Source: Escherichia coli
GTDB taxonomy: Bacteria; Pseudomonadota; Gammaproteobacteria; Enterobacterales; Enterobacteriaceae
Direction: 5' to 3' (one strand)
Assembly (NCBI RefSeq): GCF_003018235.1
Contig: NZ_CP027437.1
Length of the DNA: 64,000 nucleotides
Of this stretch, positions 14,253 through 64,000 are shown in pieces. A model generated the notes under the pieces. That model was given only the letters and a program-made list of their open reading frames with translations, did no database searches and was not told the DNA's origin. How positions within the stretch are numbered: position 1 is the first letter of the stretch; the number at the start of each line of letters is the position of its first letter. The translations under genes and the position numbers were made by a program.

Positions 14253-16493
14253 ATGAACAAGAAGATTCATTCCCTGGCCTTGTTGGTCAATCTGGGGATT
14301 TATGGGGTAGCACAGGCACAAGAGCCAACCGATACTCCTGTTTCACATGACGATACCATTGTCGTTACCGCCGCCGAGCAGAACTTGCAGGCGCCTGGCG
14401 TTTCGACCATCACCGCAGATGAAATCCGCAAAAACCCCGTTGCCCGCGATGTCTCGGAGATCATCCGTACCATGCCAGGCGTTAACCTGACCGGTAACTC
14501 CACCAGTGGTCAGCGTGGGAATAACCGACAGATTGATATTCGCGGTATGGGTCCGGAAAACACGCTGATTTTGATTGACGGCAAGCCGGTAAGCAGCCGT
14601 AACTCGGTGCGTCAGGGCTGGCGTGGCGAGCGCGATACCCGTGGTGATACCTCCTGGGTGCCACCTGAAATGATTGAACGTATTGAAGTTCTGCGTGGTC
14701 CGGCAGCTGCGCGTTATGGCAACGGCGCGGCGGGCGGCGTGGTTAACATCATTACCAAAAAAGGCAGTGGTGAGTGGCACGGCTCCTGGGACGCATATTT
14801 CAATGCGCCAGAACATAAAGAGGAAGGTGCCACTAAACGCACCAACTTCAGCCTGACCGGTCCGCTGGGCGACGAATTCAGCTTCCGCTTGTATGGCAAC
14901 CTCGACAAAACCCAGGCTGACGCGTGGGATATCAACCAGGGCCATCAGTCCGCGCGTGCCGGAACGTATGCCACGACGTTACCAGCCGGGCGCGAAGGGG
15001 TAATTAACAAAGATATTAATGGCGTGGTGCGCTGGGACTTCGCGCCATTGCAATCGCTGGAACTGGAAGCAGGTTACAGCCGCCAGGGCAACCTGTATGC
15101 GGGCGACACCCAGAACACCAACTCCGATTCCTATACCCGCTCGAAATATGGCGATGAAACCAACCGTCTGTATCGCCAGAACTACTCGCTGACCTGGAAC
15201 GGCGGCTGGGATAACGGAGTGACCACCAGCAACTGGGTGCAGTACGAACACACCCGTAACTCGCGTATTCCGGAAGGTCTGGCGGGCGGTACCGAAGGGA
15301 AATTTAACGAAAAAGCGACACAGGATTTCGTCGATATCGATCTTGATGACGTGATGCTGCACAGCGAAGTTAACCTGCCGATTGATTTCCTCGTTAACCA
15401 GACGCTGACGCTGGGTACGGAGTGGAATCAGCAGCGGATGAAGGATTTAAGTTCCAACACCCAGGCGCTCACTGGGACGAATACCGGCGGTGCTATTGAT
15501 GGTGTGAGTGCGACAGACCGTAGCCCATATTCAAAAGCAGAAATTTTCTCGCTGTTTGCCGAAAACAATATGGAGCTGACTGACAGCACCATCGTAACGC
15601 CTGGGCTGCGTTTCGATCATCACAGCATTGTTGGCAATAACTGGAGTCCGGCGCTGAACATCTCGCAAGGTTTAGGTGATGACTTCACTCTGAAAATGGG
15701 CATTGCCCGTGCTTATAAAGCGCCGAGTCTGTACCAGACTAACCCAAACTACATTCTCTATAGTAAAGGTCAGGGCTGCTATGCCAGCGCGGGCGGCTGC
15801 TATCTGCAAGGTAATGATGACCTGAAAGCGGAAACCAGTATTAACAAAGAGATTGGTCTGGAGTTCAAGCGCGACGGCTGGCTGGCGGGCGTCACCTGGT
15901 TCCGTAACGATTATCGCAATAAGATTGAAGCGGGCTATGTGGCTGTAGGGCAAAACGCAGTCGGCACCGATCTCTATCAGTGGGATAACGTACCGAAAGC
16001 GGTGGTTGAAGGTCTGGAAGGATCGCTAAACGTACCGGTTAGCGAAACGGTGATGTGGACCAATAACATCACTTATATGCTGAAGAGTGAAAACAAAACC
16101 ACGGGCGACCGTTTGTCGATCATCCCGGAGTATACGTTGAACTCAACGCTGAGCTGGCAGGCACGGGAAGATTTGTCGATGCAAACAACCTTCACCTGGT
16201 ACGGCAAGCAGCAGCCGAAGAAGTACAACTATAAAGGTCAGCCAGCGGTTGGACCGGAAACCAAAGAAATCAGCCCGTACAGCATTGTTGGCCTGAGCGC
16301 GACCTGGGATGTGACGAAGAATGTCAGTCTGACCGGCGGCGTGGACAACCTGTTCGACAAACGTTTGTGGCGTGCGGGTAATGCCCAGACCACGGGCGAT
16401 CTGGCAGGAGCCAACTATATCGCCGGTGCCGGGGCGTATACCTATAACGAGCCGGGACGTACGTGGTATATGAGCATTAATACTCACTTCTGA
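14253..16493 (+). CDS. fepA: TonB-dependent ferric enterobactin outer membrane receptor FepA
   Basis: Track ORF 14196..16493; start trimmed to MNKKIHSLALL (ATG 14253); TonB box DTIVVTA; C-terminal F as in beta-barrel proteins. Confidence 0.9.
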   Translation: MNKKIHSLALLVNLGIYGVAQAQEPTDTPVSHDDTIVVTAAEQNLQAPGVSTITADEIRKNPVARDVSEIIRTMPGVNLTGNSTSGQRGNNRQIDIRGMGPENTLILIDGKPVSSRNSVRQGWRGERDTRGDTSWVPPEMIERIEVLRGPAAARYGNGAAGGVVNIITKKGSGEWHGSWDAYFNAPEHKEEGATKRTNFSLTGPLGDEFSFRLYGNLDKTQADAWDINQGHQSARAGTYATTLPAGREGVINKDINGVVRWDFAPLQSLELEAGYSRQGNLYAGDTQNTNSDSYTRSKYGDETNRLYRQNYSLTWNGGWDNGVTTSNWVQYEHTRNSRIPEGLAGGTEGKFNEKATQDFVDIDLDDVMLHSEVNLPIDFLVNQTLTLGTEWNQQRMKDLSSNTQALTGTNTGGAIDGVSATDRSPYSKAEIFSLFAENNMELTDSTIVTPGLRFDHHSIVGNNWSPALNISQGLGDDFTLKMGIARAYKAPSLYQTNPNYILYSKGQGCYASAGGCYLQGNDDLKAETSINKEIGLEFKRDGWLAGVTWFRNDYRNKIEAGYVAVGQNAVGTDLYQWDNVPKAVVEGLEGSLNVPVSETVMWTNNITYMLKSENKTTGDRLSIIPEYTLNSTLSWQAREDLSMQTTFTWYGKQQPKKYNYKGQPAVGPETKEISPYSIVGLSATWDVTKNVSLTGGVDNLFDKRLWRAGNAQTTGDLAGANYIAGAGAYTYNEPGRTWYMSINTHF

Positions 16494-16530
16494 TGCTAAC
16501 GTCAGATTGTTGACAAAGTGCGCGTAGTTC

Positions 16531-16630
16531 ATGCCGGATGCGGCGTGAACGCCTTATCCGGCCTACAAAAATCTTGCCAATTCAATATATTGCAGGACCA
16601 CGTAGGCCTGATAAGCGTAGCGCATCAGGC
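16531..16630. repeat. pair of REP-like palindromic units between fepA and entD
   Basis: gccggatgcggcgtgaacgccttatccggcctac and gtaggcctgataagcgtagcgcatcaggc are classic enterobacterial REP sequences in opposite orientation. Confidence 0.5.
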
Positions 16631-16667
16631 AGTTTTGCGTTTGTCAACATTCTCTAATATGGTCGAC

Positions 16668-17288
16668 ATGAAAACTACGCATACCGCCCTCCCCTTTGCC
16701 GGAAATACGCTGCATTTTGTTAAGTTCGATCCGGCGAGTTTTCGCGAGCAGGATTTACTCTGGCTGCCACACTACGCACAACTGCAACACGCTGGACGTA
16801 AACGTAAAACAGAGCATTTAGCTGGACGAATCGCTGCTGTTTATGCCTTGCGGGAATATGACTATAAATATGTGCCCGCTATCGGCGAGCTACGCCAACC
16901 TGTGTGGCCTGCGGAGGTATACGGCAGTATTAGCCACTGCGGGACTACGGCATTAGCCGTGGTATCTCGTCAACCGATTGGCATTGATATCGAAGAGATT
17001 TTCTCTGTACAAACCGCAAGAGAATTGACAGACAACATTATTACACCAGCAGAACACGAGCGACTCGCAGAATGCGGTTTAACCTTTTCTCTGGCGCTAA
17101 CACTGGCATTTTCCGCCAAAGAGAGCGCATTTAAGGCATCGGAGAGACAAACTGATGCAGGATTTCTGGATTATCAGATAATTAGCTTGAATAAACAGCA
17201 GATCATCATTCGACTAGAGGATGAGCAGTTTGCTGTGCACTGGCAGATAAAAGAAAAGATAGTCATAACGCTGTGCCAACACGATTAA
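16668..17288 (+). CDS. entD: phosphopantetheinyl transferase EntD
   Basis: Track ORF 16518..17288 reads through the REP units; start trimmed to MKTTHTALPF (ATG 16668) by recognition of EntD. Confidence 0.85.
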   Translation: MKTTHTALPFAGNTLHFVKFDPASFREQDLLWLPHYAQLQHAGRKRKTEHLAGRIAAVYALREYDYKYVPAIGELRQPVWPAEVYGSISHCGTTALAVVSRQPIGIDIEEIFSVQTARELTDNIITPAEHERLAECGLTFSLALTLAFSAKESAFKASERQTDAGFLDYQIISLNKQQIIIRLEDEQFAVHWQIKEKIVITLCQHD

Positions 17289-17437
17289 TTGACAATACCC
17301 GGAGCGATTCGCCCGCAGCCAATGCTGACTGCGGGCGAAAGTGTAAAGCAGGTGCCTTACTACTCTGACCTGACAACCGGATATGCGGGGATTACTCCCA
17401 TAAGCGCTAACTTAAGGGATTACTCCCCGCACAACGG

Positions 17438-17590
17438 CTACTTCTTCGGTTCGTAAGCGAGAACAGCCTTAAACTCAATATTACGTTCCTTCACCGTAAA
17501 CTCACACAGCGAGTCGCGGACCAGAAGCGTAAATCCCAGCACCGTTAAACACAGCACTATGACTGCCACAAGGGCATATTTCGTCAGCAT
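17438..17590 (-). CDS. hokE: Hok-family membrane toxin, copy 1 (one substitution versus HokE: G25R)
   Basis: 50 codons [50 protein letters not shown]; overlapped out of frame by the mok-like ORF 17502..17735. Confidence 0.8.
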
Positions 17591-17735
17591 GTTTATATTG
17601 CCTCCATGCGAAGAAGGGACTACCATCCGAGTTGTTGAGGTTCGGAGTGGCAGCCCCAGGATTGATAGAAATATCTCCTGGGGCTTCATCTTTCCAGATC
17701 TCAGAGTTAACCTGAAACCGGAAAGCTTCAGGCAC
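17502..17735 (-). CDS. Mok-like overlapping reading frame of hok copy 1
   Basis: 77-aa ORF in a different frame covering most of hok, the arrangement known for hok/sok loci. Confidence 0.5.
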
Positions 17736-17940
17736 CCGCAGCTATCTTACCTTTCCTCAACAAAATAGCTGTTTATTTATACAGCAAATCCTGTTTCGGA
17801 CTTCTGTTGGCAAAACTGATCATTGCCCTTAAAACGACATCGCCCGCAGCCATTGCTGACCGCGGGCGAAAGTGTAAAACAGGTGCCTTACCACCCTGAC
17901 CTGACAACCGGATATGCGGGGATTGCTCCCCGCACAACGG

Positions 17941-18093
17941 CTACTTCTTCGGTTCGTAAGCGAGAACAGCCCTGAACTCAATATTACGTTCGTTCACCGT
18001 AAACTCACACAGCGAGTCTCCGACCAGAAGCGTAAATCCCAGCACCGTTAAACACAGCACTATGACTGCCACAAGGGCATATTTCGTCAGCAT
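17941..18093 (-). CDS. Hok-family toxin, copy 2 (K34N and K41R versus HokE)
   Basis: [50 protein letters not shown]; mok-like ORF 18005..18193 overlaps. Confidence 0.75.
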
Positions 18094-18193
18094 GTTTATA
18101 TTGCCTCCATGCGAAGAAGGGACTACCATCCAAATTGTTCAGGTTTGGGTAGGTAGCCCCAGGGTTGATAGAAATATCGTCCTGGGGCTTCAT
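18005..18193 (-). CDS. Mok-like overlapping frame of hok copy 2 (N-terminus differs from copy 1)
   Basis: 62-aa overlapping [16 protein letters not shown]... Confidence 0.4.
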
Positions 18194-18444
18194 CTTTCCA
18201 GACCTCAGAGTTAACCTGAAACCGGAAAGCTTCAGGCACCCGCTGTTATCTTACCCTTCCTCAGCAAAATAGCTGTTTATTTATACAGTGAATCCTGTTT
18301 CGGACTTCTGTTGGCAAAACTGATCATTGCCCTTAAAACGACATCGCCCGCAGCCATTGCTGACCGCGGGCGAAAGTGTAAAACAGGTGCCTTACCACCC
18401 TGACCTGACAACCGGATATGCGGGGATTACTCCCCGCACAACGG

Positions 18445-18597
18445 CTACTTCTTCGGTTCGTAAGCGAGAACAGCCTTAAACTCAATATTACGTTCCTTCA
18501 CCGTAAACTCACACAGCGAGTCTCCGACCAGAAGCGTAAATCCCAGTACCGTCAAACACAGCACTATGACTGCCACAAGGGCATATTTCGTCAGCAT
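18445..18597 (-). CDS. Hok-family toxin, copy 3 (identical to the HokE sequence I recall)
   Basis: [50 protein letters not shown]; here the hok frame stays open upstream to 18741 and begins with the Mok N-terminus (MPEAFRFQV...), i.e. the mok and hok frames are fused. Confidence 0.75.
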
Positions 18598-19028
18598 GTT
18601 TATATTGCCTCCATGCGAAGAAGGGACTACCATCCAAATTGTCTGGTTTGGAGTGGCAGCCCCAGGGTTGATAGAAATATCTCCTGGGGCTTCATCTTTC
18701 CAGACCTCAGAGTAAACCTGAAACCGGAAAGCTTCAGGCACCCGCCGTTATCTTACCCTTCCTCAGCAAAATAGCTGTTTATTTATACAGTGAGTCCTGT
18801 TTCGGACTTCTCACTCCTCATTTGATCAACTGAAGCTGAACCCGTTTTTTTCTGCATGCCTCAATCGTCAAAATTCTTCGCCACCAGCCAGCTCTGCCAT
18901 AACTTGTCACATTGCAAAAGTAGCCAAATTGCTTCAGTCACCATCACCAAAAAAAAGAAACATTCCAGAACTTCCGCATCTCGCCCAGCCGCTCCGACTT
19001 CTATACTGAATAGAAAACGCCAACATAA

Positions 19029-20156
<1,128 letters not shown>

Positions 20157-20221
20157 GCCGGGAATTGCCTTACAGAAGAATATCCCTGACAATGGTGTTT
20201 TAACTTACATTTAACAATGTT

Positions 20222-20470
20222 ATGAAACACCCTTTAGAAACCTTGACCACCGCAGCAGGCATTTTGCTGATGGCTTTCCTTTCTTGCCTGCTGCTACCCG
20301 CCCCCGCACTGGGGCTGACGCTGGCACAAAAACTGGTGACCATGTTCCATCTGATGGATCTTAGCCAGCTTTACACTTTATTGTTTTGTCTGTGGTTTTT
20401 AGTGCTGGGCGCTATTGAGTATTTTGTTCTGCGCTTTATCTGGCGACGCTGGTTCTCGCTGGCGGATTAA
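20222..20470 (+). CDS. ybdJ: small inner membrane protein YbdJ
   Basis: 82-aa ORF with two hydrophobic segments; recognised as YbdJ. Confidence 0.8.
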
Positions 20471-20535
20471 ACGTCGATTATCGCCGAACTTCGCGGCATA
20501 CTTTGCTTATTCTCCTTCGCCTAAAGGAACGTTTA

Positions 20536-20903
20536 TGGATAAGCAATCACTGCACGAAACGGCGAAACGCCTGGCCCTTGAGTTACCCTTTGTCGAGCTT
20601 TGCTGGCCTTTTGGCCCGGAGTTCGATGTTTTTAAAATTGGCGGCAAGATTTTTATGCTGTCGTCGGAGCTGCGCGGCGTCCCCTTTATCAATCTGAAGT
20701 CCGATCCACAAAAATCCCTGTTAAATCAGCAAATATACCCGAGCATCAAGCCAGGGTATCACATGAATAAAAAGCACTGGATTTCAGTGTATCCCGGCGA
20801 GGAAATCTCCGAAGCGTTACTTCGCGATCTGATCAACGATTCGTGGAATCTGGTGGTTGATGGTCTGGCTAAACGCGATCAAAAAAGAGTGCGTCCAGGC
20901 TAA
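20536..20903 (+). CDS. ybdF: uncharacterised protein YbdF
   Basis: Track ORF 20415..20903; start trimmed to [13 protein letters not shown] (ATG 20536). Confidence 0.8.
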
Positions 20904-20996
20904 AGCGGAAATCTATAGCGCATTTTTCTCGCTTACCATTTCTCGTTGAACCTTGTAATCTGCTGGCACGCAAAATTACTTTCACATGGAGTCTTT

Positions 20997-21650
20997 ATGG
21001 ATATCATTTCTGTCGCCTTAAAGCGTCATTCCACTAAGGCATTTGATGCCAGCAAAAAACTAACCCCGGAACAGGCCGAGCAGATCAAAACTCTACTGCA
21101 ATACAGCCCATCCAGCACCAACTCCCAGCCGTGGCATTTTATTGTTGCCAGCACGGAAGAAGGTAAAGCGCGTGTTGCCAAATCCGCTGCCGATAATTAC
21201 GTGTTTAACGAGCGTAAAATGCTTGATGCCTCGCACGTCGTGGTGTTCTGTGCAAAAACCGCGATGGACGATGCCTGGCTGAAGCTGGTTGTTGACCAGG
21301 AAGATGCCGATGGCCGTTTTGCCACGCCGGAAGCGAAAGCCGCGAACGATAAAGGTCGCAAGTTCTTCGCCGATATGCACCGTAAAGATCTGCATGATGA
21401 TGCGCAGTGGATGGCAAAACAGGTTTATCTCAACGTCGGTAACTTCCTGCTCGGCGTTGCAGCGCTGGGTCTGGACGCGGTACCCATCGAAGGTTTTGAC
21501 GCCGCCATCCTCGATGCAGAATTTGGTCTGAAAGAGAAAGGCTACACCAGTCTGGTGGTTGTTCCGGTAGGACATCACAGCGTTGAAGATTTTAACGCTA
21601 CGCTGCCGAAATCTCGTCTGCCGCAAAACATCACCTTAACCGAAGTGTAA
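20997..21650 (+). CDS. nfsB: oxygen-insensitive NAD(P)H nitroreductase NfsB
   Basis: Track ORF 20946..21650; start trimmed to [17 protein letters not shown] (ATG 20997). Confidence 0.9.
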
Positions 21651-39739: not shown

Positions 39740-41810
<2,071 letters not shown>

Positions 41811-45926: not shown

Positions 45927-46528
45927 TGGATAACGCCGTATTAAATAGCGAGCTTATTACCACGAAGGCGGGGAATATTACCGTCTATAACTATGATGGT
46001 GAGACGCGGGAATATATTTCTGCATCAACTGAATATCTTGCAGTGGGTGTCGGTATTCCAGCATATTCCTGTTTAGACGCTCCTGGTACATCTAAGGCTG
46101 GTTATACAATTTGCCGTTCTGTGGATTTAAAATCATGGGAATATGTGTCAGACCATCGCGGTGAAATCGTCTATAACACCGAAACGGGAGATGCCAAAGA
46201 AATCACAGCACTAGGCGACTATCCCGAAAATACAACCACTATCGCCCCGTTAACGCCATACGATAAATGGGATGGTGAAAAATGGGTGACAGATACTGAG
46301 GCACAACACGGTGCCGCAGTAGAAGCGGCAGAAGCACAGCGCCAGTCACTGATTGATGCAGCAATGGCTTCCATCAGTCTGATTCAACTGAAATTGCAGG
46401 CCGGACGTAAACCGACGCAGGCAGAAACAACCAGACTTAACGCTGTGCTGGATTACATTGACGCGGTGACGGCAACAGATACCAGCACCGCGCCGGATGT
46501 CATCTGGCCTGAACTGCCGGAGGCGTAG
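45926..46528 (+). CDS. tail fibre assembly chaperone (Tfa), partner of the alternative fibre segment
   Basis: 200-aa ORF whose start overlaps the preceding stop; conserved Tfa C-terminus. Confidence 0.7.
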   Translation: MDNAVLNSELITTKAGNITVYNYDGETREYISASTEYLAVGVGIPAYSCLDAPGTSKAGYTICRSVDLKSWEYVSDHRGEIVYNTETGDAKEITALGDYPENTTTIAPLTPYDKWDGEKWVTDTEAQHGAAVEAAEAQRQSLIDAAMASISLIQLKLQAGRKPTQAETTRLNAVLDYIDAVTATDTSTAPDVIWPELPEA

Positions 46529-46943
46529 GCCATTCAATATCTGGCGCACTGGAGGTATCAACCAGCTCCAGTGCATCCAGATAATCCAGCCACAAATTAT
46601 ATTGCGCCAGTTCCTCACCTTTCAGACGACCAATAGCGGCTTTACCGGGCCATTGTTTACTGTTCATGTATTCGTTGGCCTGGTTAATCAATAATTGCCT
46701 CTCTGATTCGGCCTGTTCAATAAGTTCCTCATGTGATGGTGGAGGTATTTCAGCCCATGTGGGAAAACCATTTTCCCCTGCAACTCGGATTTTCCCTTGT
46801 GGCGGTTCCGCCATATATTTTACAGAAATATCATCAGGAATATCTAATGCATTAGCAGGCCATGTTCCATTTACTTCATAAGTGTTTTTTAAATTAACAG
46901 CATAAAAAGCATTTTCCGAAGGGGAATAAATATATTGATTCAT
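46500..46943 (-). CDS. tail fibre assembly chaperone (Tfa), expressed orientation
   Basis: 147-aa ORF convergent with the other tfa and overlapping it by 29 bp; conserved C-terminus SSAPDIEWPTPP. Confidence 0.7.
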   Translation of the reverse strand: MNQYIYSPSENAFYAVNLKNTYEVNGTWPANALDIPDDISVKYMAEPPQGKIRVAGENGFPTWAEIPPPSHEELIEQAESERQLLINQANEYMNSKQWPGKAAIGRLKGEELAQYNLWLDYLDALELVDTSSAPDIEWPTPPAVQAR

Positions 46944-46944
46944 A

Positions 46945-47583
46945 TTATCTTCCTATTGCGATAATCATAGTTCCATACAAACCATTTCCGGTTGATACTT
47001 TTAAGGTTACTGATGTCCTTGTTGTCGTGTACCCCATAAGTTTAAAGGTCGGAGCAGCCGTTAATGTGCCATCTGACCATAAGGCACTAACAGCCAGTGC
47101 GCCTGAAGGAAATGCAATAGGGAAATTACCTGTAGTTCCGTTAGTGTCCGCCCCATAAACATTCATCGAAAACATTTGGACAATATGACCACTTGGTAAC
47201 TGAAACCAGTTTTTGCCAGATGGAAATGCAGACATATCTGGTATCTGATTTTCCCCTGTTCCCACATTCCGTTTTGCCGCTTCTCCCAAACCAAGGTTTT
47301 CGAGAGCCGTTTTCACCGTGCCGTCCGATTTGATATCGCCAAACGGATTTTTGCGGCTTAACAGCAGCGCACGAAGCGCGGTAAGCAGCTGGTCATGCCG
47401 CCCCTTCTCCAGGCTGGCACCGGATGCCTCCACCACGCTGCAGAGTTCTTCCTGCAACATGTCAAAGTAGTCATCATCCAGATCGGTGGCAGGTGTGCCG
47501 GTCTGGGGGTTACCACGGGTAAAACCGTTCTTACCCGCGCCGAACTTATCCTTCTGCGCGGTTTTCGTGTCTATACGATGCAT
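46945..47583 (-). CDS. tail fibre protein (constant N-terminus plus variable C-terminus)
   Basis: 212-aa ORF; the crossover site lies inside the gene near codon 95. Confidence 0.7.
47279..47298. other. gix/cix-like recombination site (proximal, inside the tail fibre gene)
   Basis: gcttctcccaaaccaaggtt, inverted relative to 45441..45460. Confidence 0.5.
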
Positions 47584-47586
47584 GGA

Positions 47587-58047: not shown

Positions 58048-58432
58048 TGCTGCCTCCGTGACTCTGCCTACATTCGCCCAGCTCCGTACACTCCAGCAGC
58101 AGAAAGCGCCGCGCCCCGTTCAGATCGCGCTGACGTTTCACCCGGTACACACTGTCACCGCAGACCACCTCATAATCAGCGGTGATCCCCCGGCGGTAAC
58201 GAATGGTGATGTAATGGGTGATGGCGTCCCCTGTCTGCGCGGTTTCCTGCCAGGTGGTGGCACTGGTCTGGATAACCTTCGCCCATGTCCGGAACGTAAC
58301 CGGGTATTGAGGCTCCACGCCAAAGTTATCCGCGGGCATATCCACCCGCAGGCGGATCAGGACGCGTTTATTCAGTTCACCGGGGTCCGGCAGAATGTAG
58401 GTTGCGCTGGTCTGCGCCTGACGAATTTTCAT
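58022..58432 (-). CDS. head closure / head-tail adaptor protein
   Basis: 136-aa ORF between connector and tail-completion genes. Confidence 0.5.
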   Translation of the reverse strand: MKIRQAQTSATYILPDPGELNKRVLIRLRVDMPADNFGVEPQYPVTFRTWAKVIQTSATTWQETAQTGDAITHYITIRYRRGITADYEVVCGDSVYRVKRQRDLNGARRFLLLECTELGECRQSHGGSNGDSLFSR

Positions 58433-58752
58433 TGCGGAAAGTACCTGTACGGGCCGACAAGCCAGCCAAAACTCTGCGGCATGTCGAGTTTCTCCACTTC
58501 CGTAACCGACGAGCGGTTTTCGTAAAAATGGCTGATAAGCATCAGCATCCCCAGACGAATATCATCCGGCAGGTGCAGCCCGTCCGGATCGCTCTCCGGA
58601 ATGGTTTCATCCGGTGCATAGAGCTTCCGGTTCAGATACGTTTCCGTCCGCTTTTGCGCCGCACAGGCCAGCAGTTGCAGATGGCGGTCATCAGCATCGA
58701 AATCCTCATCCAGCCGGAGTTGGGCTTTAATCTCTTCCATTGTCAGAAGCAT
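58429..58752 (-). CDS. head-tail connector protein (gp6-like)
   Basis: 107-aa ORF immediately downstream of the capsid module. Confidence 0.5.
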   Translation of the reverse strand: MLLTMEEIKAQLRLDEDFDADDRHLQLLACAAQKRTETYLNRKLYAPDETIPESDPDGLHLPDDIRLGMLMLISHFYENRSSVTEVEKLDMPQSFGWLVGPYRYFPQ

Positions 58753-58754
58753 AC

Positions 58755-58955
58755 TCAGCCCTCTTTACTGGTCGTGGCTTTTTTCTCTTTTGCCGCTTTA
58801 CTGCTTTTTGCACTGGTTCCGCGCTCTGCTAACCCGGCCTGAAGTGCAATCTCCTGCACCCGGGCAGGAAGCGCCCCATCGTCATACTCACCGGCCCGAA
58901 TGACCTCAACACGCATACCGTCCGGTGACCATTTCAGATCTTGTTTCAGGATCAT
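58755..58955 (-). CDS. hypothetical small phage protein
   Basis: 66-aa ORF with a Lys/Ala-rich tail, between capsid and connector; function unknown. Confidence 0.35.
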   Translation of the reverse strand: MILKQDLKWSPDGMRVEVIRAGEYDDGALPARVQEIALQAGLAERGTSAKSSKAAKEKKATTSKEG

Positions 58956-59004
58956 GATTCTTCACCCGTCAGAACAGGGGGCGCGGTTCCGCGCCCCTGA
59001 GTGA

Positions 59005-60210
59005 TTACGCCGCTGCAATCTTCAGCAGTTTGATGGCCTGCGAATCGACCAGCATCCCGCCGGTGCGCTTGGTGGTATAAAAACCGACAAACGGTTTATT
59101 GGTGTACGGGTCACGCAGAATGCGGGTGCCGATACGGTCAACGATGGTGTAACCCCGTTTGAAGTTACCAAATGCAATGGCTTTCGCATCAGCGGCGATA
59201 TCCGGCATCTGTTCGTTTTCAGCGATACCGTAACCCGCCAGAGAGGACGGCTGCCCCAGTTCCAGCCCCGGACGCCACAGATAGTTACCCTCGCTGTCTT
59301 TAAGCAGACGGATGGCAAACAGGCTGTTGTTGTTCATCATGAACTTCGCGCCAGTGCGGTGTGCCTTACGCAGCGTGTAAATCAGTTTGATAATGGCGTC
59401 TGCGGTCACCGCGGTCGCTTCGCCGGATACAATATGCTGAAGTTTGCCGAACGCCCGGACCTTGTCGGTTTCATCAGTGGATTCATACGCCAGGAACCCT
59501 TTCGGCTTCTTGGTGCCATCGCCTGAGGTAAAGGCAATTTCTTCCTGTTCGGCAAATTCGGTTGCCAGCTCGCTGTTGATCCAGGCCTCCACGTTGAAGA
59601 AGGCATCGTCCAGCATTTTCTGGGTAGCCTGCGGGTTGCCGTAGATTTCCCCCATGAGAGGTTCAATCAGCTCCAGTCTGGAGGTGGCAGTCTGGGATCG
59701 CGTATCCGTTTCCCCCACCCATCCGGAAGCCGTACCGCCCAGATTCACCAGTTTTTTGTAGTCGGAACCGCCAACGGTGATCACCGTGGCTTCCTGACGC
59801 ATCACCACTTCATCTTTCAGCAGGTTAAGAATGTTGCGATCCAGTTCTTCCGGCACGGCGTAGCCACCGTCTTCATCGGTACCCACCTGCAATGCCTTAC
59901 GCTCCAGATCGCGCAGACCGTCTTCACGGCCTTTACGTAGAAAGCCCACAAACGCCTCTTTATGCTCGGTGGCCAGTTTATTTTGCGCTCCACCTGCCGG
60001 ACGTTTCAGCTCAAGCAGCTCTTTTTCAAGGTCGCTTTTGAGATTTTCCAGCTCGCTGAGTTTCCCGTTCAGGGTTTCCACCTGCCCGGCAAGCTTGCCT
60101 TTTTCCTGCTCAATCGCATCCACGCGCTTGTCGTTCTTTGCTTTGAAGTCGTCAAACTTCTGCTGCAGCTCCTGCGCGACCTGTTCGACATCTTTAATAT
60201 CAACCGCCAT
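59005..60210 (-). CDS. major capsid protein, HK97 family
   Basis: 401-aa ORF with an N-terminal coiled-coil delta domain followed by an HK97-like fold region. Confidence 0.85.
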   Translation of the reverse strand: MAVDIKDVEQVAQELQQKFDDFKAKNDKRVDAIEQEKGKLAGQVETLNGKLSELENLKSDLEKELLELKRPAGGAQNKLATEHKEAFVGFLRKGREDGLRDLERKALQVGTDEDGGYAVPEELDRNILNLLKDEVVMRQEATVITVGGSDYKKLVNLGGTASGWVGETDTRSQTATSRLELIEPLMGEIYGNPQATQKMLDDAFFNVEAWINSELATEFAEQEEIAFTSGDGTKKPKGFLAYESTDETDKVRAFGKLQHIVSGEATAVTADAIIKLIYTLRKAHRTGAKFMMNNNSLFAIRLLKDSEGNYLWRPGLELGQPSSLAGYGIAENEQMPDIAADAKAIAFGNFKRGYTIVDRIGTRILRDPYTNKPFVGFYTTKRTGGMLVDSQAIKLLKIAAA

Positions 60211-60224
60211 CGTATTTCTCCTGA

Positions 60225-60911
60225 TTAGAAGTTCAGATTTTTCAGTGCATTCAGTGCAGAGCCCACATCCTCAGCGTCGCGCAGGGACAGTGCGCCATAG
60301 CCCCCGGCCATGAATGCTTTGGCCTGGGTACGGGAGAGTCCGACATCACGCAGGACTCTTTCGATTTTTTTCTGTTCGGGGATTTCCCCGCGGGCCAGCG
60401 CGTTCTTGACGTCGCTGATCCGCGCCTCGTCGTTAGACGGAAACGTCACCAGACTGACTTCCCAGAGGTCGATTTCTTTCAACAGAAAGGCTTCTTTGCT
60501 CCGGTCGTATTCCCAGTCTTTCAGGACGTACCCAATAGAAAGGCCGGTTAACGAACCGGCCTTCATGTGTGCATGTGCGCGTTTTGCGAGGGGATCATCA
60601 TCAATAAGCAACCGTCCCCTGACGTAAAGCCCGACATCGTCTTCCTTCATTTCGGTGTAAACACCGATGGGTTCATCCATGCGGTGCTGCCAGAGCAGCG
60701 CAGGTAACGCTTTTCTGTCACTCCACGCCCGCAGGGAAGCAGCAAATGCCCCGGACATCACCACATCATCGTGGCTGTCCTTTACACCAAAGACGGAGCC
60801 ATACCCTTCAAACTCACCGGAGTCACTGACAGATTTCAGACTCAGCGGTACATCAAGACGTTGTTTCGTCTGCATTGGCGTTATCCTTCTGCTTACCGGC
60901 TTTACTGCCAT
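60225..60911 (-). CDS. prohead maturation protease, HK97 family
   Basis: 228-aa ORF between portal and capsid; the true start may lie at an internal Met, since the track ORF overlaps the portal end by 59 nt. Confidence 0.75.
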   Translation of the reverse strand: MAVKPVSRRITPMQTKQRLDVPLSLKSVSDSGEFEGYGSVFGVKDSHDDVVMSGAFAASLRAWSDRKALPALLWQHRMDEPIGVYTEMKEDDVGLYVRGRLLIDDDPLAKRAHAHMKAGSLTGLSIGYVLKDWEYDRSKEAFLLKEIDLWEVSLVTFPSNDEARISDVKNALARGEIPEQKKIERVLRDVGLSRTQAKAFMAGGYGALSLRDAEDVGSALNALKNLNF

Positions 60912-62094
60912 CGGAGGGTTTCGTGGTCATGTTCATCGGTGTGAGATAGACATCCCCACCGGGACGCGGATTCATATCTTCCAGGTCGCGGCAGTCATTG
61001 GGAGAGTAAATTCCCCAGTTAATCCCGGTGGCGTAGGCTTCAAAACGGGACTTCATATCCCCGCGCAGTAACGCCCCGGCGTTAAATTTGGCGTAATAAA
61101 CGCCCTGCTTACTTTTTCGTACCAGTCCGGTGTTGATCCGCTGCTCAATGCGGGTCAGATACGGCACCAGTGAATAGTTGATAAATCCCAGCCCCAGCTC
61201 TTCGATATTGTTGAAGGTGGCGCGATCGGTGTTCTGCACCATGTGCAATGGCACACGGAACAGACGACAGATTTCTTCAAGCTGAAACTTGCGGGTTTCC
61301 AGGAACTGGCTGTCCTCGGCGTTCAGCGCCATCGACTTCCAGTCCAGCCCCATCTCAAGGATCATCGGGCGGTGAGCATTACCAAGCCCGGTGTGACGCT
61401 CCTCAAAATCTTTCTTCAGACGCTCATAAGCCTGATCCGACAGCGTCTGCTCTGTACGCAACACACCGGACGTCACCGCACCATTGCTGAACAGTCTGGC
61501 CCCGTGCTCTTCGGTCGCAGCTGCCAGCGATATTGCCTCGCGGGCATAGGCGATGGGATTCAGTCCCACCAGACCGTCCAGCGTCAGCGTGCGCACATGC
61601 CAGATATCTTCCTGGCTCAGTACATCCGTGGAGCCGTCCGGGAATGTGACCTGGTAAACCGGTTCCCAGCTACTGTTAAGCTTCGGTACCACACAACCTG
61701 GGTCGACGGGCAGCAGTTCAGCCACTTCGCCAAATGCTTTCACTTTGTAGGCGTAAAAGTTTCCCCGCAGGCACAGACAGGTGATCACCAGCTCCCAGAA
61801 CTCCTGCGGCGTCATATAGCCATTGGGATGCGTGGAGATCAGCTTATGCAGACGTTCGCCGGTGGCTCTCTGTTTCAGGCTGCCGTTCAGGTGATACAGG
61901 TTGCAGGGCAACATCCCGACCGACTCCGCCAGCACCCTGACGCAGGAAAAAACCGCCGTCAGTCGCATGGCCCGCTGGCTGCTGATCTGCTTTCCGGTAT
62001 AGGTGTCATATGACAGCCCGATAGCATCCGCCAGCTCTGCTGGCGTGGTCACCGGTGCGTCACTTTTTCGTTGAAATAATCCCGAAAAGAACAC
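60853..62094 (-). CDS. portal protein, HK97 family
   Basis: 413-aa ORF upstream of the protease/capsid genes. Confidence 0.85.
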   Translation of the reverse strand: MFFSGLFQRKSDAPVTTPAELADAIGLSYDTYTGKQISSQRAMRLTAVFSCVRVLAESVGMLPCNLYHLNGSLKQRATGERLHKLISTHPNGYMTPQEFWELVITCLCLRGNFYAYKVKAFGEVAELLPVDPGCVVPKLNSSWEPVYQVTFPDGSTDVLSQEDIWHVRTLTLDGLVGLNPIAYAREAISLAAATEEHGARLFSNGAVTSGVLRTEQTLSDQAYERLKKDFEERHTGLGNAHRPMILEMGLDWKSMALNAEDSQFLETRKFQLEEICRLFRVPLHMVQNTDRATFNNIEELGLGFINYSLVPYLTRIEQRINTGLVRKSKQGVYYAKFNAGALLRGDMKSRFEAYATGINWGIYSPNDCRDLEDMNPRPGGDVYLTPMNMTTKPSDGSKAGKQKDNANADETTS

Positions 62095-62276
62095 TATTTA
62101 CCTCCGCCGACAGACGGCTGTGTACGGTCGAGATATCGCGCCACCAGCCACGACCAGAACAGGCACAGCGCCCCGGCAACAACAAACCCCGCCGGGGGAT
62201 AAATCAGCCAGGCACCATACGCCAGCAAAAGCGCACCCAGCACGCCCACCAGAGGCGCGAGAATCAGCATGATCAT
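62094..62276 (-). CDS. small two-span membrane protein of unknown function
   Basis: 60-aa hydrophobic ORF wedged between terminase and portal, start/stop-coupled to the portal gene. Confidence 0.4.
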
Positions 62277-62287
62277 AATTACCTCAG

Positions 62288-63949
62288 TTAAAGCGAGCGG
62301 ATCCCGTAGGACTCAATGTGATCAGACAGCGTGTCTTCTTTCTCGTACAGCATGGCTCTGCCAACCGCCATAATCAGCGCAACTGCACCATCAATTTTGT
62401 TTTCCGCCTGCTCCTTGACGGGCTTCACCACATCATCGTTACCCGGAATGGTTTTGCCGACCACGTTGCCGATACACCAGGTCATGATGGGATTGCCGTC
62501 ATGATGAAAACGCCCCGATTCAATTGCCGCTTCCAGCTCTTTCAGCGGGTCGGACATGTTGGTGTAGTTCTGAATGATGGTGATGGGGTTCAGGTCTTCA
62601 TCCGCAAGGTCATGCGACAGCCCGGTCGCCCCGAAGGGGTCGATGGGTGACTCACTGACCGGGCTGATTTTGTTCGCCGCTTTGGCCTCCTCGAGGATGT
62701 AGCGATAATCCACCTCCGCACCATCGGTAACGGTCAGAACGCCCATTTCCACCCATTTCTGAAAGCGCTCGGCTGTCCGGCGATCTTCATTTTTCTCGAC
62801 GCTGTACACCGTGTCATACGGTACCCAGAAGCGCGGAGCCACACTGTAGTAATGCGTTTTACCGTCAATCTCGCGGGTATAAAGTCGCGCCATACTGTTC
62901 ATATCCAGCTTACGCGCCAGGTCAAAGGCCAGAATGCACGGCTGCCCCTCAAACTGCTCAAGGGTCAGTGATTTATCCTCGCAGCTCTGCCAGCTCACCA
63001 GGTTGAAATACGCCGAACGCGCCGACACCCAGATATTGAGGTGTTTTGTTTTAAAGACGTTTGCCAGACGGGCGTTATTTTTCGCACGCTGCTGCTGACT
63101 TAACAAAAATTCGCGATAAACCGACACGCCAATATTTGGATTGGCTTTTTCCAGCACCTGCGGGTCGGTCCAGTCGTCACCTTCATCAACGGTATAGATG
63201 ATCCCGAACAGTTCATCGTTGGGCACCGAGCCGTTGAGCATCTCGATGACTTCCCGCCGCTTGTCGTAGCACGGCCCCTCAATGTTGTACCCGGCAGTAG
63301 TAATGGCCCACATCAGTGGCTGACGTCGCGCCCCCATCCCGGTAAGCATCGTGGTGTAAAGCGCATCGGTGGCGTGCTCGTGATATTCATCCACCACCGC
63401 ACAGTGGGGTGATGATCCATCACCGGGGTTACCGATCAGCGGTTCAAAACGCGCACCATCCTCCGGACGGTTCATGTTTGAGGCGTTAACCTCAATCCCG
63501 AACGCTTCCGTCAGCATGGGTGTGCGTTTACACATCAGTCGCGCCGGGCGAAAGACTTCCCACGCCTGTTTCTCTGTCGTGGCACCGGAATACACTTCCG
63601 CGCCAAACTCGTTATCACAGGCAAAACAATACAGGGCGACACCGGCAGAGATTGCCGATTTGCCGTTCTTACGGGGGATTTCGGTATACACCTCACGGAA
63701 GCGGCGCAGCCGGGAGCCTTTATTGACCCAGCCAAACGCGCAGCAGATCACAAAGAGCTGCCACGGCTCCAGCGTGATGGGCATCCTCTTGAATGCCCAC
63801 TCACCCTTGGTGTGCGGCAACAGCTGAATAAATTTGGCGGCCCGTTCAGCCAGGTCCTTGTCGAAGCGGTAACGAAACGACTTACTTTTTTCCGCCATCA
63901 GGTCATCAAGATGGCGCTGGCAGGCCTGAATCACAAACTGGCAGGCCAC
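62288..63949 (-). CDS. terminase large subunit
   Basis: 553-aa ORF at the head of the structural module. Confidence 0.85.
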
Positions 63950-64000
63950 AATCTTTCCGCGAACGACATCCCGGGCATACTGATTGGCAGCATTTACGTT

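Follow-up and report, generated by a model that had tools for sequence, protein, structure and literature searches.

The closest described relatives of the locus analysed here are hok/mok/sok of plasmid R1 and the chromosomal hokE/sokE locus of E. coli K-12. In the R1 system a Hok_Gef peptide is encoded by an mRNA with a leader of the Rfam model type, a fold-back between 5′ tac and 3′ fbi elements and a stem-loop after the hok stop codon, and the cis-antisense RNA Sok carries a single-stranded 5′ tail and a terminator hairpin. The upstream frame, mok, matters through its translation and not through its product (PMC9841398). Post-segregational killing is not known for chromosomal hok homologs. 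K-12 hokE/sokE (b4415/b4835) lies between ybdK and entD as a single copy, in which IS186B inserted in the 3′ hairpin cuts fbi and the terminator off the gene; K-12 HokE is reported to be toxic upon expression (preprint). Tandem duplication is typical of type I toxin-antitoxin loci, as in the arrays of Ibs/Sib and of Ldr/Rdl, where several near-identical toxin/antisense units share one intergenic region (PMC2887945). For hok itself, local groups of 2-6 duplicates, termed "islets", hold 10% of the genes, and among chromosomal hok genes of Escherichia the share in islets is 13.5% (bioRxiv 10.1101/2025.08.07.668861).

The window (the whole 64,000-nt stretch of E. coli contig NZ_CP027437.1 that was analysed) carries three such units at the K-12 position. 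Its ORF listing places entD at 16518-17288 and ybdK at 19038-20156, and a repeat search between them identified three head-to-tail direct repeats, 503/504 nt from start to start and spanning 17309-18811. This bore out the original prediction of three direct repeats of about 0.5 kb, and the ORF listing likewise agreed with the predicted hok stops at 17438, 17941 and 18445. The units and the spacers joining them are:

17309-17839, minus strand: hokE/sokE unit 1, entD-proximal, 531 nt including a 28-nt IS186 scar (repeat search and alignment)
17840-18343, minus strand: hokE/sokE unit 2, 504 nt (repeat search and alignment)
18344-18811, minus strand: hokE/sokE unit 3, ybdK-proximal (repeat search and alignment)
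17806-17839, unstranded: inter-unit spacer of type "Ja" at junction 1-2 (sequence comparison)
18310-18343, unstranded: inter-unit spacer of type "Ja" at junction 2-3, identical to that at junction 1-2

In every unit a 50-codon hok gene lies intact on the minus strand, accompanied by a terminator and by a hok/sok leader that exceeds the Rfam threshold; the plus strand holds a putative antisense gene resembling SokE. The alignment proposed with the original prediction showed each unit to differ from the other two (mean column identity 93%), with diverged similarity running about 35 nt past 18811, to about 18847. TRF reported no repeat here because the period of 503-504 nt exceeds its 500-nt ceiling. 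Comparing the inter-unit spacer with the 3′ end of entD, with a view to the original duplication endpoints, gave no significant alignment (161 and 112 of 2000 shuffles scored at least as high). A 118-aa ORF antisense to hok (18418-18774, plus strand), which PGAP calls a hypothetical protein elsewhere and mostly flags as frameshifted, is regarded as spurious.

The three toxin genes are:

17438-17590, minus strand: hok copy 1, 50 aa with R25 (ORF; PF01848 recorded for L006, a locus of identical sequence; match to the NCBIfam Hok family at E = 8.5e-12)
17941-18093, minus strand: hok copy 2, 50 aa with N34 and R41 (ORF; Hok family profile match)
18445-18597, minus strand: hok copy 3, 50 aa, identical to WP_000956465.1 (ORF; Hok family profile match)

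L006, a contig from an independent NCBI assembly, is 100% identical to window positions 14941-21093, and each of its three hok genes is on record as a member of Pfam family PF01848 (Hok_Gef). The three window peptides matched NCBIfam Hok family/HokA models with E values of about 1e-9 to 1e-14, below the curated equivalog cut-offs, and this search returned no HokE model passing its cut-off. Orthology to hokE was indicated by entD-ybdK synteny together with near-identity to RefSeq HokE (WP_000956465.1), from which copy 1 departs at one residue and copy 2 at two. Translation reproduced the substitutions originally read in them, G25R in copy 1 and K34N plus K41R in copy 2. Copy 3 had been said to have the HokE sequence, which is true of the RefSeq entry, but K-12 HokE itself has A8 and not V8, the only residue at which the two peptides differ. 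PGAP applies the label hokE to copies in strains E371, AF39, C4, 7/2, EDL933, XH988, N96 and 3347558. Purifying selection acts on the Hok peptides: in the sampled Escherichia genomes pN/pS was 0.22 and 25/25 Hok ORFs were intact.

At the RNA level the following elements were located:

17582-17737, minus strand: hok mRNA 5′ leader of copy 1, with tac (17730-17737), metastable hairpin, Sok target and hok SD (Rfam RF01794, 83.6 bits)
18085-18241, minus strand: 5′ leader of copy 2, tac at 18234-18241 (RF01794, 84.1 bits)
18589-18743, minus strand: 5′ leader of copy 3, tac at 18736-18743 (RF01794, 83.7 bits)
17351-17358, minus strand: fbi element of copy 1, AAGGCACC in the mRNA (tac pairing predicted at P about 0.5)
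17882-17889, minus strand: fbi element of copy 2 (tac pairing predicted at P about 1.0)
18386-18393, minus strand: fbi element of copy 3 (tac pairing predicted at P about 1.0)
17309-17338, minus strand: terminal hairpin of hok mRNA copy 1, a 13-bp stem with no T tract, abutting the entD end
17840-17869, minus strand: intrinsic terminator of copy 2, a 13-bp stem followed by TGTCGTTTT (terminator prediction)
18344-18373, minus strand: intrinsic terminator of copy 3 (terminator prediction)
17634-17695, plus strand: predicted Sok1 antisense RNA, promoter TTGCCT (17598-17603) and TACCAT (17621-17626), homologous to K-12 sokE (b4835)
18137-18199, plus strand: predicted Sok2 antisense RNA, promoter at 18101-18106 and 18124-18129, homologous to K-12 sokE
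18641-18701, plus strand: predicted Sok3 antisense RNA, promoter at 18605-18610 and 18628-18633, homologous to K-12 sokE

All three units matched RF01794 along the entire model and scored 83.6-84.1 bits, where the gathering score is 59, confirming that they are hok/sok-related. In the folding suggested alongside the original prediction, tac-fbi pairing was present in the predicted MFE structure (with P about 1.0 also for an IS-free K-12 reconstruction). The 3′-trimmed mRNAs folded with three different 5′ pairings and displayed no clear tac-ucb switch, and these folds are given no weight here. The Sok-target stem includes one compensatory A-U to G-C pair. A sigma-70 scan of the region found no consensus promoter; the hok -35 element is poor, and the predicted Sok promoter (TTGCCT-17-TACCAT), present with a terminator hairpin in all copies, has 8/12 consensus matches and falls under the scanner threshold. 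The promoter positions given here were placed from homology to K-12 sokE and from the point at which the Rfam model begins.

If the units work like their homologs R1 hok/sok and K-12 hokE/sokE, a weak promoter in each unit would produce an hok mRNA of about 405-435 nt from the minus strand, which would stay inert while the 5′ tac GGGUGCCU pairs with the 3′ fbi AAGGCACC. Slow 3′ trimming to a GGGG-N6-CCCC hairpin just past the stop codon would open the leader; Sok (about 61-63 nt, plus strand) would then pair with the leader stem-loop, single-stranded 5′ tail first, and block expression, and loss of Sok would allow translation of the 50-aa membrane toxin. Whereas the repeats, intact ORFs, Rfam leaders, predicted tac-fbi pairing, sokE homology, synteny and distribution among strains and species come directly from the analysis, we infer transcription, processing, toxicity and Sok control in the window strain by analogy. 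The likeness to R1 extends over the peptide family, the leader and the stem-loop after the stop codon and, as predictions, over the fold-back and the architecture of Sok, whereas the window locus is chromosomal and not plasmid-borne and has no mok start codon at the R1 position. Relative to K-12, the unit is about 97% identical with the same 3′ hairpin, and K-12 Sok is nearly identical to Sok3; the window differs in having three copies and only a 28-bp scar of IS186.

The upstream frame varies between the copies. The sole upstream AUG (+49) is in frame with hok in copy 1, opens an ORF that overlaps hok out of frame in copy 2 and, in copy 3, opens an ORF ending 27 nt ahead of the hok AUG. Copy 3 had been described as a fusion of mok and hok; the 98-codon ORF concerned (18445-18741) is present, but it depends on a GTG at mRNA nt +3 inside the tac element, an unlikely start, and we regard the fusion as an ORF-finder artefact. 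In K-12, mokC and hokC share a stop coordinate, and an in-frame mok is normal there. Across Escherichia, two 1-nt indels throw the upstream ORF into every possible frame, in keeping with the idea that mok matters only by being translated.

Copy 1 differs from its neighbours at the 3′ hairpin, where the relevant elements are:

17399-17426, unstranded: IS186 scar within the copy 1 3′ hairpin, comprising 18 nt of IS186 terminal inverted repeat (17399-17416) and, at 17417-17426, the repeat occurrence of the duplicated 10-bp target GGATTACTCC, which first occurs at 17389-17398, by comparison with the K-12 IS186B junctions
17918-17931, unstranded: intact IS186 target motif GGGG(N6)CCCC, coinciding with the 3′ protective hairpin of copy 2 (motif search; motif from PMC5009759)
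18422-18435, unstranded: intact IS186 target motif GGGG(N6)CCCC, coinciding with the 3′ protective hairpin of copy 3 (motif search; IS421/IS186 at the corresponding hairpin in N96 and 3347558)

The inserted CTTAAGTTAGCGCTTATG equals the last 18 nt of K-12 IS186B and is flanked on both sides by GGAGTAATCC, duplicated as in K-12, and the scar occupies the site at which K-12 carries IS186. The statement that no IS is present is therefore literally true, but it overlooked this 28-bp remnant. An identical scar was found in AF39, in NZ_CP148331.1 and in one metagenome scaffold; only single-piece BLAST hits were trusted here (AF39 and NZ_CP148331.1), as unscarred arrays give two joined half-matches. 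The reported IS186 target motif is GGGG(N6/7)CCCC (PMC5009759); the 3′ hairpin of every unit is a canonical IS186 target, and the scar in copy 1 is what is left of an IS186 later almost wholly deleted. That the hairpin is such a target accounts for strains differing in which copy holds IS186 and for the scar in the window. The protective 3′ hairpin of hokC is likewise a canonical IS186 target.

Tandem hokE is widespread. Of 60 complete E. coli genomes sampled at an even spread, 27 (about 45%) had two hokE places and 0 had three copies; three copies are rarer than two, with E371 and N96 as complete-genome examples, and the maximum was four places per genome. Two tandem copies occur in O157:H7 EDL933, C4, 7/2, AF39 and XH988, and tandem pairs were also found outside E. 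coli, in E. whittamii, Escherichia sp. MOD1-EC7003 and strain SCPM-O-B-8794. The Ja junction was detected in 760/5426 complete genomes and a second type, Jb, in 434/5426. Other E. coli arrays share with the window the locus, the period of about 504 nt, homologous junction spacers and copies that are orthologous by position. They differ in composition: the window has two Ja junctions, E371 one Jb, one Ja and IS421, and N96 two IS421 insertions. At least one independent draft assembly carries an array identical to that of the window.

These comparisons bear on the origin of the array. The original prediction had proposed recent amplification of a single hokE by unequal crossing-over, with the copies diverging for dosage or new function. 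The two junction spacers are indeed identical over 34 nt, the 300-nt segments across them are 97% identical, and two Ja-type junctions together occurred in none of the 5426 complete E. coli genomes searched, so a later crossover or gene conversion inside an existing array did occur in the window lineage. Recent amplification is nonetheless improbable. Compared with its same-position counterpart in E371, copy 2 had 7/504 differences, copy 3 had 13 and the copy 1 leader had 0, whereas neighbouring copies within the window differed at 46-82 positions (4-7% outside the scar). Because each copy is nearer to the same-position E371 copy than to its own neighbours, the paralogues appear to predate the split of the two strains, a position-wise grouping drawn from a small sample of arrays. 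Nor are the mutations private to the copies: G25R, a change toward the Hok family consensus that raises the NCBIfam scores, recurs in strain 7/2 and in E. whittamii, there in both copies; the loss of 1 nt seen in copy 3 is shared by 7/2, by E. whittamii and by representatives of two further Escherichia species; and the K34N/K41R allele of copy 2, although limited to a minority lineage, was found in 42 index blocks of public assemblies. The tandem pairs of other Escherichia species and the purifying selection on Hok also argue against it. That the array is an assembly artefact, a one- or two-copy locus expanded, is scarcely credible. The repeat is hard for short reads, since several draft assemblies (L008-L011) break inside it, and TRF was silent; however, dozens of positions, among them indels and the 28-nt insert, distinguish the copies, which an artefactual expansion would not produce, the independent contig L006 is identical over the whole array, 14 further places collapsed into the L006 entry mostly have the same neighbour genes, and the E371 and N96 chromosomes carry three copies.

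Two further explanations concern what the copies do. They may be decaying, non-functional hok/sok remnants that persist by chance, as suggested by reports that chromosomal hok loci are inactive in killing assays, by the unconserved frame of the upstream ORF, by IS186 interrupting hokE copies in many strains and by the state of copy 1, where tac-fbi pairing is predicted to be weaker than in copies 2 and 3, the 3′ hairpin is scarred and the terminal hairpin lacks a T tract. We consider this unlikely in view of the intact hok ORFs and their low pN/pS, the toxicity of K-12 HokE, a leader diversity of 0.02 against 0.085 in the promoter-upstream region, and the retention in every copy of tac and fbi, of the hok SD, of both promoter and terminator of Sok, and of the UACG context around codon Y46. 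Alternatively, the recognition elements may have diverged to the point where a Sok acts chiefly on the mRNA of its own unit, making every copy individually "addictive" and resistant to recombinational loss. In the window, 8/22 sites of the Sok-tail target were variable versus 14/297 elsewhere in the mRNA (Fisher p = 2e-5); the same excess was seen over 23 units (p = 0.004), with diversity of 0.17-0.26 in the target segment versus 0.02-0.03 elsewhere. This clustering of the differences in the Sok tail and target loop hints that the Sok antitoxins are partly copy-specific. Targets differed among members in 8/9 arrays with all copies recovered, predicted tail duplexes were -44 to -49 kcal/mol for cognate and -23 to -39 kcal/mol for non-cognate pairs, and there is a precedent in the tandem Sib/Ibs array, where only cognate pairs repress, ibsA excepted (PMC2943612). 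However, the toxin families and RNA architectures of Ibs/Sib and of Ldr/Rdl are unrelated to hokE, for which copy specificity is a prediction, as are the duplex energies. Moreover, full Sok duplexes would still be possible across copies because the copies hardly differ over the other ~40 nt of Sok, Sok1/Sok3 cross-pairing is still strong (-34 and -39 kcal/mol), two leaders are identical in one array (L007), and the target segment, a largely unpaired loop, may simply be under less constraint. Independent control of each copy is accordingly a tentative reading, possible but doubtful.

Taken together, the data favour a three-copy allele of the chromosomal E. coli hokE/sokE type I toxin-antitoxin locus, whose units are paralogues of old date, maintained and rearranged through unequal crossing-over and gene conversion and not freshly amplified, a reading to which we assign a probability of roughly 80%. 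With the differences between copies concentrated in the Sok tail and target loop, the three Sok RNAs are probably only partly interchangeable. Judged from the genome comparisons, tandem hokE appears to be an old and common copy-number polymorphism of E. coli. The array is also an ordinary, already annotated feature: tandem hokE is annotated in hundreds of RefSeq E. coli genomes, EDL933 among them, and hok islets have been described. What may be of use to the type I toxin-antitoxin field is that array members differ at the Sok contact, that their 3′ hairpins are IS186 targets and that the mok frame is free to shift. Since members differ mainly at the first target contact of Sok, antitoxin cross-talk within the array is directly testable. 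A wider picture, which we offer as speculative and rather doubtful, is that hokE units evolve as mutually insulated Sok/hok pairs, with diversifying change concentrated on the ~22-nt tail/target loop while the rest of the mRNA is frozen, and with the IS186 hot spot in each 3′ hairpin serving as a recurrent, sometimes reversible off switch for single copies. Were the pairs insulated in this way, each copy would be addictive in its own right and hard to lose through unequal crossing-over.

A repeat search of the entD-ybdK interval revealed three direct repeats with start-to-start distances of 503/504 nt, and alignment of the units gave a mean column identity of 93%. TRF did not report the array because the repeat period exceeds its maximum of 500 nt. 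The flanking genes, the units defined by alignment (numbered from the entD side) and the hok genes identified by ORF search are:

16518..17288, plus strand: entD, flanking the array on one side
17309-17839, hok sense on the minus strand: unit 1, including a 28-nt insert
17840-18343, hok sense on the minus strand: unit 2
18344-18811, hok sense on the minus strand: unit 3, with weak similarity on to ~18847
19038..20156, plus strand: ybdK, flanking the array on the other side
17438..17590, minus strand: hok copy 1, 50 codons, intact
17941..18093, minus strand: hok copy 2, 50 codons, intact
18445..18597, minus strand: hok copy 3, 50 codons, intact

All three units produced a full-length match to RF01794, the Rfam sok/hok leader (83.6-84.1 bits; gathering score 59), confirming that they are related to hok/sok, and the translated ORFs agreed exactly with the Hok substitutions named in the original prediction. 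The triplication of a hok unit that it had described was thereby borne out. Every copy retains the hok SD (GGAGG), both cysteines and UACG around the Y46 codon, which in hokE is reportedly recoded through TadA editing (preprint). R25, carried by copy 1, is the residue preferred by family profiles, since the R25 variant scores higher with them. Plus-strand ORFs antisense to hok/mok (18418-18774, 17559-17768 and 18062-18214) are probably spurious; in other genomes PGAP calls their equivalents 'hypothetical protein', mostly flagged as frameshifted or containing internal stops.

An assembly artefact is a very unlikely source of the array, given an independent identical contig and copies that differ from one another by substitutions, indels and the 28-nt insert. 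The 130-kb contig of GCA_025590685.1 matches window 14941-21093 at 100% identity and has three called PF01848 genes; 14 more places, mostly sharing the neighbouring genes, were collapsed into this match by the look-up, and two other assemblies match at 100% and 99.97% until a contig break within the array. Identity of the array flanks is 96-98.5% with E. coli chromosomes, 95-96% with Escherichia sp. MOD1-EC7003 and 87-95% with E. whittamii, SCPM-O-B-8794, Escherichia sp. E1V33 and E. albertii; these values place the window in E. coli, in a lineage outside the 5426 complete genomes. Elsewhere in the window, the fepA-entD spacer (16503-16609) holds REP-type elements, where Rfam placed ES036 above its gathering score and naRNA4 matches below theirs. 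On the minus strand, ~46500-64000 encodes a structural module of a myovirus-type prophage (tail fibre, baseplate, hub, tape measure, sheath, major head, portal and large terminase), which adjoins ompT and an AraC-type regulator and continues past the window end.

The original prediction had suggested recent unequal-crossover amplification for the triplication, with each copy mutated differently. This is contradicted by position-wise comparison with E371, a complete E. coli genome with three annotated hokE copies, as the window copies match their same-position counterparts better than their neighbours and the mutations are shared alleles. Copies 2 and 3 differ from E371 copies 2 and 3 at 7/504 and 13 positions, respectively, and the copy 1 leaders are identical, whereas adjacent copies inside the window differ at 46-82 positions. 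R25 is also found in strain 7/2 and both E. whittamii copies, and N34/R41 of copy 2 in public assemblies (42 index blocks). Strain 7/2, E. whittamii, MOD1-EC7003 and SCPM-O-B-8794 share the 1-nt deletion seen in copy 3. Two inter-unit spacer families, Ja and Jb, occur in 760 and 434 of the 5426 complete genomes; both window junctions are Ja, a state found in none of the 5426. The double Ja shows that conversion or crossover did occur later, within a pre-existing array. Segments of 300 nt spanning the two junctions are still 3% different. Judged by sequence, two-copy arrays resemble recombinants of the three copy types; in strain 7/2, for instance, the copy next to entD joins a copy-2 leader to a copy-1 3' part.

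Copy 1 carries a scar within the 3' hairpin of hok. Its 28-nt insert (17399-17426) joins the final 18 nt of the IS186 inverted repeat to another copy of the 10-bp target duplication GGATTACTCC; K-12 IS186B has precisely this site and this duplication. AF39, NZ_CP148331.1 and one metagenome scaffold have the same scar, and near-complete IS186 deletion with such a footprint appears common to several E. coli strains. The hairpin directly after the hok stop reads GGGG-AGUAAU-CCCC and the canonical IS186 target is GGGG(N6/7)CCCC (PMC5009759), so by motif IS186 has a canonical target in the protective 3' stem-loop of hokE. Motif matching located intact GGGG(N6)CCCC targets in the other copies:

17918-17931: copy 2
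18422-18435: copy 3

IS186/IS421 elements lie at the hairpins of differing array copies in E371, N96 and 3347558, and in K-12 also 20 bp beyond the end of hokC (locus L017), a position equivalent to the hokE hairpin and likewise a canonical IS186 target. The window also has an IS21-family element (istA/istB) at 39862-41663, between ybcH and ompT.

Elements within the units were assigned by homology with K-12 hokE/sokE and by the R1 paradigm (PMC9841398). The Rfam model placed the hok mRNA starts, at GGGUGCC, at 17737, 18241 and 18743. The mRNA opens with eight nucleotides (tac) whose complement, fbi (AAGGCACC), lies ~350-380 nt 3', and pairing of the two is present in the MFE structure of the full-length folds and of an IS-free K-12 hokE reconstruction; its predicted ensemble probability is ~1.0 in copies 2 and 3 and ~0.5 in copy 1. 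Every unit closes with a 13-bp terminator hairpin; in units 2 and 3 a T tract comes after it, whereas unit 1, which adjoins entD, lacks one. A small conserved hairpin, GCTGTATAAATAAACAGC, with a T-rich run after it, sits at 17768-17785 (minus strand) and at equivalent positions in units 2 and 3, directly upstream of each hok -10 box; it could shield the unit against read-through or belong to the promoter. Homology to K-12 sokE places a candidate plus-strand Sok promoter, TTGCCT-17 nt-TACCAT, 5' of Sok in the units. The predicted antisense RNAs (61-63 nt), homologous to the annotated K-12 SokE, would fold into a ~9-10-nt single-stranded 5' tail and a terminator hairpin:

17634-17695, plus strand: Sok1
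18137-18199, plus strand: Sok2
18641-18701, plus strand: Sok3

The mok-hok fusion originally proposed for copy 3 was not sustained, as the 98-codon ORF begins at a GTG at mRNA nt +3, within tac, an implausible start. The sole AUG upstream of hok, at +49, is a candidate mok start. Its frame depends on a pair of 1-nt indels (GGA[C]GAUAU and AAACC[N]): the ORF is in the hok frame in copy 1 and K-12 (83 aa), overlaps hok out of frame in copy 2 (62 aa), as in R1, and ends in copy 3 (22 aa) at a UAG 27 nt ahead of the hok AUG. An in-frame mok is usual for K-12, whose mokC and hokC have a common stop coordinate. All three states recur across Escherichia, consistent with the published role of mok, in which translation up to the hok SD counts and the product does not (PMC9841398).

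Divergence is concentrated in a ~22-nt stretch with complementarity to the Sok 5' tail, where diversity is 0.26 among the window copies and 0.17 among 23 units, compared with 0.02-0.03 in the remaining leader and CDS. Among the window copies 8/22 sites vary in this target versus 14/297 elsewhere in the mRNA (Fisher p = 2e-5), and the excess holds across the 23 units (p = 0.004). One stem pair beside the target loop shows a compensatory A-U to G-C change. Tail duplexes are predicted at -44 to -49 kcal/mol between cognate partners and at -23 to -39 kcal/mol between non-cognate ones, Sok2 being the most isolated, and in 8/9 arrays with all copies recovered the members' targets differ, L007 alone having identical ones. 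Sib/Ibs tandem loci are known for cognate-only repression (PMC2943612), which the hokE array resembles by prediction. Mutual insulation of the Sok/hok pairs within the array is possible, though not the likelier reading; the other ~40 nt of Sok are near-identical among copies, and the target, lying in an unpaired loop, may merely be less constrained.

All 25 of 25 Hok ORFs sampled across Escherichia genomes are intact (pN/pS 0.22) and the hok leader is strongly conserved, both in favour of function; against it, the hok and Sok promoters are poor by consensus, and killing assays of chromosomal hok loci are negative in the literature. From their sequences the three units are probably expressible modules, with copy 1, whose hairpin is scarred and fold-back weaker, most likely to be impaired.

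A hok CDS query returned 7976 places across 5374 genomes, no genome having more than 4; of 60 genomes sampled at even spread, 27 had two places and none had three. E371 and N96 have three hokE copies, O157:H7 EDL933 a tandem pair (annotated hokE x2), and E. albertii and E1V33 one copy each, of the copy-1 type by Sok target. The species representatives of E. whittamii, Escherichia sp. MOD1-EC7003 and SCPM-O-B-8794 likewise have tandem pairs (loci L013, L014 and L016), and therefore the duplication seems to predate E. coli as a species, or to have recurred. Tandem hokE was already known, as 10% of hok genes, and 13.5% of Escherichia chromosomal ones, lie in 'islets' of 2-6 local duplicates (bioRxiv 10.1101/2025.08.07.668861), and Fozo et al. 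described tandem duplication as typical for type I loci (PMC2887945). Thus, the observation behind the original prediction stands and its interpretation does so in part, without the recent amplification: the window locus is the known hokE/sokE, whose copy number is an old, common and recombining polymorphism, here in the rarer state of three copies.
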